A DNA stretch of 64,000 nt from Eledone cirrhosa (Eukaryota): positions 30,442,001 through 30,506,000 of the forward strand of contig OZ024756.1 of NCBI GenBank assembly GCA_964016885.1, given 5' to 3'. This document shows positions 1,436 to 57,149 of the stretch, one piece after another. The notes under the pieces are model-generated. The model made no database searches, had not been told where the DNA came from, and was given only the letters and a program-made list of their open reading frames with translations. A program made the translations under genes and the position numbers. Within the stretch, counting starts at the first letter, position 1. The number at the start of each line of letters is the position of its first letter.

Positions 1436-1518
1436 CCGGACGTAAATTCGTGTTTCCGGACTTGCATCATTGAAAAAAATAAATACAAGGATATACGTGT
1501 GATATTCTTCATCAGCGG
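1436..1518 (-). ncRNA. Degenerate hammerhead-like motif
   Basis: Minus: CCG-CUGAUGA...GAAAC-ACGAAUUUAC-GUC-CGG; stem I only 3 bp and stem II weak. Confidence 0.45.
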
Positions 1519-2011
1519 CAAAGAATCGTTCGAGACTTCTCTTGAATGAATACAACGCACCGAAACAGGAAAGGAAATATCGGAAAGAAAAAAATCCAAC
1601 CGGAATTTCGATCAATCCTCTGTTTGACTAGCCGGCCATAGATTTAGAGATTTAGTAGATATTTTAATACTGATTGAAATAATTTCAGATTTTCAGGTGT
1701 AGTGAGATTAAAACACTTAGATGAAAAACTCGCTGATAAATTTCAATAAAAGCACCAGTCACTCTTGAGTCTCACTACATCAAATATATATATATATATA
1801 TATATATATATATATATGTATATATATATATATATATATATATATATATATATATATATATATATATATATATATATATATATATATATATATATATATA
1901 TATATATATATACATGCTTACATATATATGTATATACCTATATATATATATTGTATATATATATACATATTTATATATATGTACATATATATATTTATAT
2001 GTTATATATAT

Positions 2012-2197
2012 TGGTAAAAGGAAAAGTAAATGCTGACAATTTGTTCCCAGTGAAGAATAGTTTAATTAGGAATAAGTAAAAATTAGTAATAGTATTAGTT
2101 AGTATTCAGTTTTGATTTTAAGTTTTACCGGTTGCACATTTCTAATGCTTTTAAAAAATAATTTTGAGATAGAGCGCCCGTGATGTTTGCTCTAATC
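2012..2197 (+). repeat. ~185-bp TA-bounded dispersed repeat; second copy at 36157-36341
   Basis: Shared ttcccagtgaagaatagtttaattaggaataag...ttttgagatag...gtgatgtttgctctaat. Confidence 0.75.
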
Positions 2198-2221
2198 TCT
2201 ATTATATATATATATATATAT

Positions 2222-2422
2222 AACGAAGGAAATGTGGTAAGGAACCAGGTGGACCATAACGCACCAAAGTACTCAATACTTAGCGTAGTAGAGTCGGTAA
2301 TAGGAACGAGTAGGACCCCGACGGCTGAGCTAAAGCCGTTTCGACGGCTAATCTGGACTCATTTGTTCAGAATTAGCCGTCGATACGGCTTGAGCCCAGC
2401 CGTCGGGGTCCTACTCGTTCCT
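2222..2422 (-). mobile_element. TA-bounded hairpin-plus-tail insert (probable PLE pLTR remnant)
   Basis: ~50-bp inverted arms across 2300-2422 plus an ~80-bp tail. Homologous to 56167-56360 in opposite orientation. Confidence 0.65.
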
Positions 2423-3674
2423 ATATATATATATATATATATATATATATATATATATATATATATATATATATATATATACACATATATATGTATATAC
2501 ATATATATATATATATAATATATATACACATATTTATATATATGTATATATATATATATTATATATATATATATATATATATATAAGTGAGTATATTGTT
2601 GTATGTATGTGTGTAAATACACACCAGGTTTCTAATAAGAAAGAAGCGTTAATGGATGTTATCTATCCGAGCCATCATGTCACTGATTACCTTACACAAA
2701 TTGCACGAGAAATGATATGACAATGTATATATATATATATACATACATATATATATATATATATATATATATATATATATATATATATATATATATATAC
2801 ATATATATATATATATATATATATATATATGTATATATATATATATACATACATATATATATATATATATATATATATATATATATATATATATATATAT
2901 ATATATATATATATATATATATATACATATATATATATATATATATATATATATATATATATATATATATATATATATATATATATATATATATATATAT
3001 ATATGTATGTGTGTGTGTGTATGTATCTATATACATATATATATGTATGTATGTATGTATCTATATACATATATACATATATAATATATATTTATATATT
3101 ATATATATTATATATATATATATTATATATATTATATATATTATATATATATATATATTATATATATATATATATATATATATATATATATAAACAAAAA
3201 AGGAAATAAACATATTTTTCTTCCTCATAATCGTCTCTTTCTCCGTTTTTATATATATATATATATATATATATATATATATATATATATATATTATACA
3301 TGTATACATACATAGAAATAAAGAGATGGAATCAGAAATAGAACACAGTCTCATATACAACAAGAGCGAGAGTGAGAATGAATTACTACTACTACCACCA
3401 CCACTACTACTACTACTACTACTACTACTACTACTACTACTACTACTACTACTACTACTACTACTACTACTACTACTACTACTACTACTCGATGTAGTTG
3501 AAAGGTAAGCTTGAAATGTTAATGTAAGACGTTTTTATATAAACACAGTAAAGTAAATATTTAAACCCAAGCCATAACAAATAACCCTAAAACAAGCAAA
3601 GAATAATAATAATAATAATAATAATAATAATAATAATAATAATAATAATAATAATAATAATAATAATAATAATA

Positions 3675-3900
3675 ATGGTTTCTTATATAGGCACAAGGCC
3701 AGCAATTTTGGGGAGGGGAAAATCGATTAAATCGACCCCAGTGCATTACTGGTACTTTATTTTATTGACCTCGTAAGGATGAAAGGCAAAGTTAACCACG
3801 ACGGGATTTGAACTCAGACCGTAAAAGGTCGTAACTGTTTGCTGCAAAGCATGGCATCCGACCCTCTACCGACACTGCCAATCCACTGACAATCAACCGC
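3675..3900 (-). mobile_element. SINE copy (long-tail variant); further minus-strand copies at ~5230, 7827, 9532, 12408, 39790, 39990, 44897, 45250, 52170, 52380, 53500, 58010, 60150, 61545, 61750, 62022, 62240
   Basis: Reverse complement of the A box/B box/body consensus seen at 45795-46635. Confidence 0.85.
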
Positions 3901-54700: not shown

Positions 54701-56166
54701 TAAGAGGTCTTAAAAAACGAAATGGCCCCCGGTCTTCTACATCTGTGCCTCCAAATGAATTGTATAAAATATATATTTTAACTCTTGCTACAATATATAT
54801 CACGTTGCAAGAAACAACCAAATCTCCCTTATATCTTACACAACGTCTCAAAAGATAGGTTTGCCGTTATCATCCAAAAGACACATTGGAAAGAACAGTA
54901 ACAACAAAGATCAAATATTGTACGCTAACTAAGTTTTAAAAAGTCGCAATATTATAACAGAGAATTGAAATTTTACCTCATTTATACTGTTCTTATAGAA
55001 GTAATTTGTAACATGAACTGTGAAAGGATGTTACCTTTACTGAGGAGCAAACTAAATGGATTCTAACTCTAATCCATGGGACCAGCCTTGTCATATACTT
55101 TGAGGCGTGGTATAACACGGGAAATTAAATTAAGGTTACACTTGTCTGTAGAGTATTCAGGAACTTAGGCGTTAATACAATGAGTAGGTCCGTCTGTTAG
55201 TTGACTAGGCCAAGCTTGTCACAAATTTTGTTCTGCAGAATCTCCCTGAAAATGTAGATCACGAGCAAGATGGTTGGATAGCATCCATGAGCTTGGCTGG
55301 TCCTCGCTCGGAGATCCAACCGAAACAGTTGGAGACAGTTGCTTCTGACATAACCCGATGAAAGGAATGTTTGAGGACTCTGTCCCCACGAACCTCTCAG
55401 GAATAAGTGGGCGAATAAAGAGGAGGAGGAGGCATACGTATCCGTAGCATACGTATCCACTTAGATATTAATTTAACCAGTATCACCATTCCTTCGATCG
55501 AGCAAATGAGCATACTCATCGTCGAAATTGACGGAGGATTGATTTATATAGAAATATTATATGGTGAATGCCAACAGTTAATCCAACATATATAATAATT
55601 ATACATTGCACTAAGAAGCATACTGAGACGTCAGAACATACCAAATATGTCCAGAGAATACGCAATACATAAAGAATATAGATAATATGTTGAATGACAA
55701 GACACTGACAGAATTTTAATAATATGGGAACACTCGCTGTTTGGTTTCTGTTTACATTAATGTTTAAATTAGTAGCGATTCCTTTATTTTGTCATATTGT
55801 GAAAGGTGTGTTGTCATTTCTTTATACTATATTATTAACACCTTTAGTACGAAGTGTGATGAATGGTAACAGTTTGTTTAGTATCCACAGAAAAATAAAT
55901 GGTATAGCAGCGGATATGTCAATCAGTACAGTGGTAGATGGTCGTATAAGATGCTCTATGGTTAAGTCGTTCACTTCAAAATCATGAGATTCTGGGTTCG
56001 AAACCAATGTCTGGAATTATCATCACGTGGTATTTACCATATTATGCAGCCTACAGAGGTCGTGTGAGAAAATTCACTGCTGCCAACATCAATAACAGTA
56101 TCATGACCACAACAGCTATTGTATATATATATATATATATATATATATATATATATATATATATAT

Positions 56167-56360
56167 ATAGGAACCAGTAAGACCTCGACGGCTGAGCTCA
56201 AGCCGTTTCGACGGCTAATTCTGGACTGAATTAGCCGTCGAAACGGCTTGAGCTCAGCCGTCGGGGTCTTACTGGTTCCTATTACCCACTCTACTACCCT
56301 AAGTATTGAGTACTTTGGTGCGTTATGGTCCACCTGGTTCCTTACCACATTTCCTTCGTT
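56167..56360 (+). mobile_element. TA-bounded hairpin-plus-tail insert, same family as 2222-2422
   Basis: Hairpin 56167-56283; tail with GTATTGAGTACT ending ccttcgtt(TA)n. Confidence 0.65.
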
Positions 56361-56469
56361 ATATATATATATATATATAATGGAAAAATTTGAACAGGAA
56401 CAAAACAGAGAGGCAGTACAACGAATGCTTATTAATTTCACGCTCTGGAGAGAGGGGTGGTGGTGGGGA

Positions 56470-56501
56470 ACGACGTTTCGGGCATAAGCCCTTCCTCAGG
56501 T
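56470..56501 (-). ncRNA. Minimal hammerhead ribozyme in a C-rich PLE-like 3' UTR fragment (~56381-56880)
   Basis: Minus: AC-CUGAGGA-AGGGCUUAUGCCC-GAAA-CG-UC-GU; minimal PLE-type HHR with GUC triplet; TA tracts on both sides of the insert. Confidence 0.75.
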
Positions 56502-57113
56502 GAGAAGTGAGTGGGAACAGAGTTCAAAGGGTGTGTAGGGGAGTGGTGGAGAGACATATAGCGAAAGGAAACGGTGAGAATGAAATTAAAAATAAAAATA
56601 AAATTAAAGCATGATCAAAATAAACTGAAATTAAAAAGGAGTAAAACAGGTGGTGGAAGAGTGTGGGGTGTGTAGGGGTGGTGGCGGGTGGAATGGGGAG
56701 AGGGAGACGGGGTGTCCGAGCGGGGAGGGCTGAAGGTGGTGTGTGTGTGTAGGTGTACGTGTGTGTGTGTGTGTGCGTGTATGTGAAAGTAAGGGTTGGG
56801 GGAAGAACGGGGTTGCATGTTCAGGAAGAGGTGTGTGTGTGTGGGGGGGTTCTAGGTCGGAGTGTCTGTGCTGATATAGATGTATATATATATATATATA
56901 CATCTATATCATATATATATAGTAATAATAATAAAATTGAAGACTAAAGTCCAAAGATTCTTTGCTTAAACTTTAATCTGTTATATATATATATATATAT
57001 ATATATATATATATATATATGGCAACATGAATGGACCTGTTATTTTTCCCTAAAAACATTTTTTTTCAATTCCTCCCCACCCGTACCTTCAATCTTTCTA
57101 ATTTCTCATTCTT

Positions 57114-57149
57114 TCTTCTGATGAAGGACTAGCCTCCGAAACGTTAAGA
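57114..57149 (+). ncRNA. Minimal hammerhead ribozyme, same family as 40881-40916
   Basis: TCTT CTGATGA aggactagcctcc GAAA CG TT AAGA, within an insert (~57021-57210) between TA and CA tracts. Confidence 0.75.

Follow-up and report, generated by a model that had tools for sequence, protein, structure and literature searches.

Hammerhead motifs of Penelope-like elements and a putative retrozyme in a TA-rich stretch of Eledone cirrhosa DNA

Hammerhead insertions in the window

The window, that is, the whole 64,000-nucleotide stretch of Eledone cirrhosa DNA under analysis, holds short insertions with hammerhead ribozyme (HHR) motifs and one long, young Penelope-like element (PLE). The 11 strong sites of the original prediction all lie within 22–57 kb of the window and correspond to 8 insertions from 6 families, not to an insert roughly every 5 kb as had been proposed. 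A descriptor scan, its thresholds chosen after inspection of the window, returned 12 sites: the same 11 and one at 11725 on the plus strand. Joining inverted pairs reduces these to 10, and the window total is 9 insertions.

Clades were assigned by protein motifs, not by a tree. On that basis F2, F3 and F6 are the 3′ ends of coding Hydra-type PLEs, F7 is a coding Neptune-type element and F5 is probably Neptune-type. F2 forms a fold-back insert at 22275..22670 with HHRs at 22315-22380 (minus) and 22474-22539 (plus), stem III AUAUAUAU and a tail on the plus arm only, and a plus-strand insert at 50071..50316 (HHR 50210-50275). F3 contributes two minus-strand HHRs. The one at 23256..23406 has a 10-bp stem I, a stem/loop II of 116 nt with C.A as its closing pair, stem III ACGAUCGU and a predicted cut after GUU at 23264; the one at 29900..30050 lies in an internal pLTR, with a predicted cut after 29908, ~355 nt upstream of the ATG. 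The F4 fold-back insert (38790..39567) carries U3-A8 HHRs at 39008-39104 (minus) and 39405-39499 (plus) with stem III ACUACGUAGU and a GUC site, and its minus arm is approximately one circularly permuted ~590-bp unit. Minimal HHRs of F5 occur in inserts at 40795..41012 (minus; HHR 40881-40916, stem III ACGU, GUU, 3′ end in (CA)n) and 57021..57211 (plus; HHR 57114-57149). An F6 3′ fragment at 41045..41203 (minus) has its HHR at 41075-41145, with stem III AUGCGCAU and an AUA site, and an F7 3′ fragment at 56381..56873 (minus) has a minimal HHR at 56470-56501, with a 2-bp stem I and a GUC site.

A fold-back insert of F8 at 49258..49422 contains an HHR that has decayed, its core at 49318 on the minus strand and its stem I broken, and an F8 3′ remnant without the 5′ core lies at 38561..38625 (minus). 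Among the weaker sites first proposed, the one near 49285 corresponds to this decayed copy, whose family is repeated and has 64 BLAST matches in the sampled loci. Those at 1436 and 7432 are unsupported as hammerheads: they fail the descriptor, have no match in the sampled loci and give only self-matches in the G000 search, which yields lower bounds. F9, assigned to Hydra and of U3-A8 type, forms fold-backs at 56170..56359, truncated inside loop II and left with the HHR 3′ half only, and at 2223..2421, again with the 3′ half only. Both F9 inserts and the F8 remnant had been missed. The U3-A8 match without a family at 11718..11762 (plus) is essentially single-copy and remains ambiguous as a hammerhead.

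Coding elements and the F4 units

F3, by its motifs a young Hydra-type PLE, occupies 23203..36078 on the minus strand as a partial tandem with a unit of 6,644 bp. It comprises an inverted tail arm, a 5′-truncated copy, the pLTR with its HHR, an intact ORF, a ~3.7-kb microsatellite-rich 3′ UTR, the second HHR and a 3′ end in (TA)n. The tandem copies 23200-29243 and 29844-35895 are 99.67% identical, and 29706-29892 recurs inverted at 35890-36076. The intact 812-aa ORF (27113..29551, minus) has RT and C-terminal GIY-YIG-type regions with RWR, DKT, YRDD, CxCx5C, CxxC-E and N-CxH motifs; its second copy (33756..35891, minus) is 5′-truncated and 99% identical. The surrounding open frame of 830 codons (27113-29605) lies between two of the predicted hammerheads, and it contradicts the statement that none of this is visible in the ORF track. 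Matches of the F3 ORF to RT and GIY-YIG profiles are weak, and a Pfam search of this and the other PLE ORFs gave no match. A Naiad identity was rejected because the EN of the window ORF is C-terminal.

HHR-ORF-HHR units were found for F2, F3, F6 and F7 (the F2 ORF link in loci L256 and L257, the F6 unit in L258 and L267). F5 is linked to an EN/ORF at one locus only (L172), and at L259 the ORF terminates 1.23 kb ahead of both F9 arms. For F4 and F8 no autonomous partner was identified. F2, F3, F6 and F9 have the features of the Hydra clade: a single ORF with RT then GIY-YIG EN (profile matches weak); RWK (as an RWR variant), DKT, CxCx5C, CxxC and CxH motifs without CCHH; and a (TA)n target, partial tandem, inverted arm and tail. 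Across 31 aligned proteins, DK[T/S] occurs in 31, CxCx4-6C in 28, CxxC..E in 30 and CxxC before YIG in none. Size departs from the clade, whose members are generally <3 kb (a descriptive, not a diagnostic trait): F2 and F6 units measure 3.7-4.0 kb and that of F3 6.6 kb, because the 3′ UTRs are long. F7 at L255 shows the Neptune features, namely DKG, a CX2-5CxxC linker and cysteines inside GIY-YIG.

The sixth family, F4, with a U3-A8 core in 32 of 34 sites that have a core, is on sequence grounds a 591-bp non-coding retrozyme. Elsewhere in the genome it forms head-to-head tandem arrays with 2-5 units of 588-593 bp per arm and a type I HHR in each. These units are often 0-2 differences apart, on both arms, and both end types lie in TA. 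The units of locus L263 contain no ORF of 150 aa, and the predicted circular fold reaches -168.8 vs -133 +/- 6 kcal/mol. Neighbouring ORFs had suggested a coding PLE, a reading rejected because the ORF belongs to another family.

Motif statistics and insertion pattern

The original prediction had proposed comparison with shuffled sequence, covariation among genomic copies and enrichment near (TA)n as checks. Forty local dinucleotide shuffles with microsatellites kept gave a mean of 0.1 descriptor matches (maximum 1) against the 12 in the window. Over 844 kb (78 grid and flank loci plus the window), a scan without the stem III condition found 62 C3-G8 matches against 0.25 in shuffles; 49/62 have a stem III, palindromic in 37 and a hairpin in 12. 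The mismatched cores C3-A8 and U3-G8 occurred twice each, none with stem III. Stem I pairs covary: in the AUAUAUAU group (n=60), pair 1 is U-A in 51 copies and C-G in 7, and pair 2 is G.U in 32, G-C in 15 and A-U in 11. TA tracts lie within 300 nt of 10/12 window sites vs 42% of random positions, and of 34/42 grid sites vs 569/1740.

All 11 strong sites lie where the original prediction placed them and are type I hammerhead motifs with a palindromic stem III, each having the core CUGANGA/GAAA (or its U3-A8 form) and an NUH triplet (AUA, GUU or GUC), with stem I closing the motif. The core varies mainly at the free position 7. The G10.1-C11.1 pair of stem II is present in F4, F5 and F7, is A-U or mismatched in F2 and F6, and is C.A in F3. 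Twelve different repeated stem III sequences were found, and the catalytic boxes, the 3-8 pair and the NUH triplets are kept throughout. Rfam at gathering score gave no match; in E-value mode, microsatellite-driven miRNA matches dominate among the 150 of 296 low-scoring matches listed. In-context folding predicted stem I for only 1/12 sites.

Exact copies number 22,318 for F6, 13,673 for F2, 13,472 for F3 (3′ half), 7,502 for F4, 3,029 for F5 and 1,397 for F7, with zero for the reversed pattern in each of the six; F9 has 26,633. The genome total is estimated at ~180,000-200,000 motifs, about one per 15 kb. In run X1, contig depth is 290-380k over the HHR and tail vs 3-5k at the 5′ end of the ORF.

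The insertions have a characteristic form. In the Hydra-type families the 3′ ends are bimodal, with two fixed 3′ ends per family, and F5 copies end in (CA)n instead in 12/29. Fold-back pairs have head-to-head arms, and in 41/46 only one arm has the long tail. Some peaks in the 5′ breaks of copies may reflect subfamily divergence from the reference. Only one same-family, same-strand tandem pair is present in the window. Copies run across the cut site, and no pile-up of starts, as an in-vivo cleavage footprint, was seen there: 3 of 392 begin within 3 nt (short-end copies visible only from 28 nt upwards). When the tail and the sequence 3′ of the cut site were examined for a stable, conserved hairpin, the z-scores were inconsistent. 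A tail common to the ACCGGU family and F3 was rejected, having appeared in 1/18 only, at a nested junction.

Origin, possible function and known systems

Very probably, several PLE families and one non-coding retrozyme carry these hammerheads near their 3′ ends, Penelope RT-endonucleases have likely copied them into TA microsatellites all across the genome, and the window is an ordinary TA-rich sample of this load. The original prediction is supported in that several PLE families leave short HHR inserts with dimer-type stem III in TA microsatellites on both strands. In the proposed mechanism, the Penelope enzyme would nick both (TA)n strands and prime two cDNAs, at two start sites located downstream of the hammerhead by 17-240 nt. 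Each cDNA would pass through the ribozyme and usually end within a few hundred bases, so that the hammerhead end would be multiplied far more than the ORF. The one-sided tails and bimodal 3′ ends match the Poseidon PLE of Anolis, in which the tail arises from two internal start sites of the RT and extension occurs on both strands of the target (Frangieh et al. 2024, PMC11167929). Poseidon belongs to another clade, and its HHR overlaps the ORF start (PMC11167929). The 591-bp retrozyme likely uses a borrowed Hydra-type enzyme and would be copied round a circle.

The role of the ribozyme is less certain. On balance, it may cut the element's own tandem precursor, dimerising by way of its palindromic stem III, probably aided by protein, and so give circularisable unit RNAs; most dispersed copies would likely be passengers that rarely cut host RNA. 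A competing account, possible though judged the less probable, shares this origin and holds that the ribozymes rarely or never cut: templates would be linear, uncleaved read-through RNAs, the fold would bind protein or serve structure, and arrays would come from multimeric transcripts or unequal crossover. Copies that read across the cut site fit it, yet a ligated circle would be read across in the same way. The main Poseidon template is unprocessed RNA, HHR mutants have no effect on Poseidon insertion, the HHR being dispensable in vitro, and no RNA-seq ends fall at the cut site (PMC11167929). Eight of nine Xenopus retrozyme dimers are reported not to cleave, and stem II bases are non-canonical in F2 and F3. 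Against these points, the catalytic boxes, 3-8 pair and triplets are retained across all those stem III sequences, and in dispersed arrays the two arms hold near-identical units, which fits a single copying event.

It is very unlikely that the window is a genuine hotspot with ribozymes that cleave or regulate a transcript of the host. Its 12 sites exceed the 4.6 expected per 64 kb (42 motifs in 580 kb of fixed-grid samples) about 2.5-fold, its TA tracts are 1.6 times as many as usual, it has 14.8 matches per 100 TA tracts vs 8.9-9.8, and domesticated intronic HHRs are known in amniotes. The bootstrap P for at least 12 motifs is 0.012, or 0.045 with a second, single fixed descriptor, both uncorrected for a window picked among ~47,000; hundreds of windows would match this richness. 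The sites reduce to 8 insertions, all ordinary family copies and one decayed, the flanks are also rich (6.7 per 64 kb), and the hammerheads are not special to the window, since the same families recur throughout the genome. The further claim that any read-through transcript could be self-cleaved is not supported. No host exon was found among 49 of 72 candidate frames scanned in the window (one sub-threshold match; small exons could escape), for 4/11 sites the prediction is complete pairing with the site's antisense copy (P(stem I) 0.00 in fold-back copies), the tandem pair is a single one, and the PLE hammerheads described in the literature are either weak or in need of protein (PMC4209133; PMC11167929). 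Chance production in AT-rich, repeat-rich DNA has a negligible probability and may apply to 1436, 7432 and 11725; for the 11 strong sites it is already refuted by the near-zero shuffles, thousands of exact copies, covariation and ORF links.

Earlier publications already describe PLE hammerheads, the targeting of (TA)n and a Hydra family in octopus. The elements here resemble Hydra-clade PLEs, including Hydra-1_Obim of Octopus bimaculoides, in C-terminal EN, RWK-like, DKT, CxCx5C and CxxC/CxH motifs without CCHH, (TA)n targets, an HHR close to the 3′ end, partial tandems, inverted 5′-truncated arms and a one-sided tail; in many of the listed HHRs, as here, the foot of stem II also has one additional base on either side (Craig et al. 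2021, PMC8557442). They differ in the 6.6-kb F3 unit (<3 kb published), tails of 80-165 nt (30-40 published), a stem/loop II that reaches 116 nt, stem III palindromes that are perfect and even, and U3-A8 cores, and compared by eye no window HHR resembles that of Hydra-1_Obim (PMC8557442). As in metazoan PLE minimal HHRs, the motifs are type I with an extra base after A9, a palindromic 15.2-16.2 and a U3-A8 variant, and occur as thousands of dispersed single motifs and as opposite-strand pairs 100-700 bp apart, with predicted dimer action (Cervera and de la Pena 2014, PMC4209133). That study counted 2,000-9,000 per genome (PMC4209133); the estimate here, made with different descriptors, is ~180,000-200,000. 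Compared with Neptune-clade PLEs, to which motifs and not a tree assign F7 and, probably, F5, the difference is that sampled copies show no tail.

F4 is like non-LTR retrozymes in its non-coding tandem units, a type I HHR in each and a highly paired circular fold (Cervera and de la Pena 2020, PMC7229834; Li et al. 2026, bioRxiv 2026.07.22.740005); dependence on PLEs is proposed for them as well. It is unlike them in its U3-A8 core and in forming dispersed arrays in (TA)n that are head-to-head and have two fixed ends, an insertion signature not seen described for retrozymes in the text consulted; F4 itself is known here from genomic DNA. The motif load and a retrozyme with the Penelope two-start-site insertion signature may be new. 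There is an even chance that a wider joint reading is correct: that the genome holds more hammerheads than any printed count found (~2 x 10^5, one per ~15 kb, vs 126,247 in the 28-Gb axolotl), that the palindromic stem III of each Penelope family acts as a dimerisation code specific to it, and that the 591-nt U3-A8 retrozyme preserves in the genome the direct footprints of a Hydra-clade enzyme that copies by rolling circle and primes both (TA)n strands from two fixed start sites. If true, the proposed PLE-retrozyme partnership would be testable with the window's intact young ORF.

What was first proposed as a local hotspot of hidden ribozymes is ordinary PLE debris of a kind already published. 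The broader findings are of use to retroelement and ribozyme specialists, through a very large collection of natural hammerhead variants, structured by family and missed by Rfam (long stem II, a non-canonical stem II base, U3-A8 cores), and through F3, an intact and very young Hydra-type element useful for biochemistry. The insertions of the F4 retrozyme appear to be made by Penelope machinery, a link for which the case has so far been co-occurrence and similarity of pLTRs. Wherever transcription reaches them, tens of thousands of fold-back inserts would yield much double-stranded RNA.

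Hammerhead motifs and their genomic load

The hammerhead ribozyme (HHR) motifs of this AT-rich, microsatellite-dense window of a 3.0-Gb assembly are real, and their origin is of an already known kind. The window's repeats have an apparently octopod character. Each of the 11 strong sites in the original prediction reads as a type I hammerhead on inspection: 22315-22380(-), 22474-22539(+) and 50210-50275(+) in family F2; 23256-23406(-) and 29900-30050(-) in F3; 39008-39104(-) and 39405-39499(+) in F4; 40881-40916(-) and 57114-57149(+) in F5; 41075-41145(-) in F6; and 56470-56501(-) in F7. 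A descriptor adjusted only after window inspection matches 12 sites, these 11 and 11725(+), versus a mean of 0.1 (maximum 1) in 40 microsatellite-preserving shuffles. A scan avoiding this circularity (844 kb, stem III unconstrained, all four Y3/R8 cores) yields 62 C3-G8 matches versus 0.25 in shuffles; stem III is a palindrome in 37, a hairpin in 12 and neither in 13. The mismatched cores C3-A8 and U3-G8 give 2 matches each, 0 with stem III. The U3-A8 yield is low (6 versus 3.5) because the scan's 6-bp stem I requirement leaves out F4; with anchoring on core and stem III, 32 of the 34 F4 sites having a core are U3-A8. At sites anchored solely on core and stem III, stem I pairs are maintained and covary among genomic copies. 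The weaker sites of the prediction fare unevenly: ~49285 belongs to family F8 as a decayed copy; 1436 and 7432 fail the descriptor and show self-matches only. Rfam reports none of the window sites at gathering score.

The same motifs occur genome-wide, and the proposal of a local hotspot fails: a fixed grid sampled at 58 loci of 10 kb across 16 contigs contains 42 matches, or 4.6 per 64 kb (shuffles 0.16-0.41), the window's flanks hold 21 in 200 kb, or 6.7 per 64 kb, and the 11 strong sites derive from 8 insertions. The window was selected because it is rich, which bears on its P values: with the grid as reference the bootstrap P of at least 12 sites is 0.012, with the flanks it is 0.034, and a second, single descriptor finds 9 versus 3.9 expected (P 0.045). 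TA tracts number 81, versus ~50 typically.

Exact-pattern copies genome-wide number 22,318 for F6, 13,673 for F2, 13,472 for F3, 7,502 for F4, 3,029 for F5 and 1,397 for F7, with 0 in all six controls; the F2, F3, F4 and F6 patterns span the 3' half of the HHR only, and in sampled loci a paired 5' core accompanies it in 45/53 (F6), 35/41 (F3) and 32/39 (F4) sites. The extrapolated genome total is 217,000 gross (139,000-300,000) and 179,000 net (112,000-257,000). Across the sampled loci, 12 stem III sequences recur. These figures do not establish a density record, because descriptors differ between published counts and this estimate and because Schistosoma, with its small genome, carries SM-alpha in very high abundance. 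Published counts include ~9,000 in Xenopus and 4,000 in coelacanth (PMC4209133), and >6,000 in Acropora and 126,247 in axolotl (PMC7229834), whose genome is 28.21 Gb (bioRxiv 2026.07.22.740005). Among the literature matches listed, subscription papers excluded, there is no cephalopod-wide hammerhead count; the word 'ribozyme' is absent from the main text of the O. vulgaris repeat paper, and related prior art exists (PMC7229834, PMC13282606, PMC6155905, PMC6765202, bioRxiv 2026.07.22.740005). This genome-wide load is worth following, as is the Penelope-type insertion signature of the retrozyme.

The further suggestion that read-through host transcripts are cleaved here is unsupported. No host exon appears among 49 window frames scanned, the core in both fold-back pairs is predicted to be fully paired to its own antisense copy, and the F3 pair is the only same-strand tandem. 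Stem I is predicted in sequence context at 1 of 12 sites by energy models that omit tertiary and dimer folds. Published HHRs of Penelope-like retroelements (PLEs) cleave poorly, dimers included (PMC4209133), and for one a protein is needed and RNA-seq ends are absent at the site (PMC11167929).

Coding Penelope-like families

An intact 812-aa ORF lies at 27113-29551 (-), flanked by two of the predicted HHRs, within an F3 element that is arranged as a partial tandem (99.67% identity) and also has an inverted arm of 187 bp. The ORF has 103 relatives, one weak named homologue (from Octopus sinensis), and weak profile matches to both reverse transcriptase (RT) and GIY-YIG endonuclease. It carries every protein motif listed for the Hydra clade, which F3 resembles, and Hydra-1_Obim, which has an HHR and targets (TA)n, is among the elements listed (PMC8557442). 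At other genomic loci, F2 and F6 each occur as HHR-ORF-HHR units, and F9 lies after a Hydra-type ORF; the Hydra-type proteins of the HHR families share 36-54% identity. The F7 HHR flanks a Neptune-type ORF, and that of F5 follows a similar endonuclease at one locus only. The F9 3' half has 26,633 copies, its 5' core missing in 33 of 41 sampled; two F9 fold-backs missed by the prediction, 2223-2421 and 56170-56359, end inside loop II.

The F3 3' UTR is ~3.7 kb long and rich in TA/CA microsatellite-like repeats in several copies (window 23410-27110 and 30050-33750; sampled loci L031 and L265), and F3 may therefore spread its own target repeats. In a sister subfamily (L041) it is just ~1.1 kb.

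Insertion ends and the retrozyme

Two 3' ends characterise each Hydra-type family, lying approximately 49 and 135 nt past the predicted cut site in F2, 40 and 130 in F6, 61 and 200 in F3, and 17 and 97 in F9; the corresponding distances in F4 are 76 and 240. Of 46 fold-back pairs, 41 combine a long-ended arm with a short-ended one. Of 392 copies, just 3 have their start within 3 nt of the predicted cut site, which means that the templates were uncut or re-ligated at that position. In run X1, contig depth at the HHR end exceeds that at the ORF start 60-100x.

F4 is a non-coding retrozyme with a unit of 588-593 bp, arranged in arrays of 2-5 that often occupy both arms, head to head, and that terminate in (TA)n at one or other of two fixed ends. 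Units of one arm are often 0-2 differences apart. The F4 copy in the window belongs to a sister subfamily (74-84% identity), and its minus arm corresponds to roughly one permuted unit.

Frangieh et al. showed that the tail arises from two internal RT start sites, that both target strands are extended and that the main template is unprocessed RNA (PMC11167929). We infer the same priming here: a nicked (TA)n would prime cDNA on each of its strands, and this cDNA would read across the ribozyme and then soon stop. In the published model, an HHR dimer trims tandem precursors and permits circles (PMC4209133, PMC6765202). Conservation, the F4 arrays and a predicted F4 circular fold tip the balance slightly towards this role here as well.

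The 4-mer ACUC lies ~6-12 nt past the short 3' end in seven of seven families, the copies being partly selected on the motif (F2, F3, F4, F6, F8, F9 and an ACCGGU family; e.g. window 29830-29850 minus, L278, L102). GAGU often follows downstream in these tails, and one further family has GCUC...GAGC instead. Judged from sequence, ACUC is a possible shared RT-recognition signal; if so, it would link the retrozyme to Hydra enzymes. The 5' break or fold-back points are family-specific, lying at the stem I 5' edge in F3 and F8, inside loop II in F9, and at CATATG, ~130 nt upstream of the cut, in F6. Downstream of the F3 cut (23203-23263 minus), the 5' strand of stem I is repeated, and this second copy pairs with the 3' strand in a hairpin predicted to out-compete the ribozyme fold (z -2.4); F4 has a similar predicted hairpin (z -2.7), and six other families have none.

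Other repeats in the window

At 49880-50025, a perfect palindrome of 74 bp, extended on one side, lies between TA tracts; its family recurs in L055, L149 and L156 and probably represents the 3' end of a further PLE, lacking a full HHR. At 49770-49830 (minus), a hammerhead-like 5' core has a 6-bp stem I and a hairpin instead of the GAAA box, with one relative in L178. Three fragments (4071-4568, 5426-5835 and 51330-51704), for which Pfam gives no match, are presumably non-LTR retrotransposon C-termini resembling a restriction-enzyme-like endonuclease. An abundant SINE-like family of ~190 bp has many copies between 3670 and 62300, some of them in tandem (39837-40127 and 46136-46634). An interstitial telomere-type repeat, an (AACCCT)n-like tract of 38 units, occupies 13083-13313, and inverted (CAC)n/(TGG)n at 41563-42115 would form a long hairpin.
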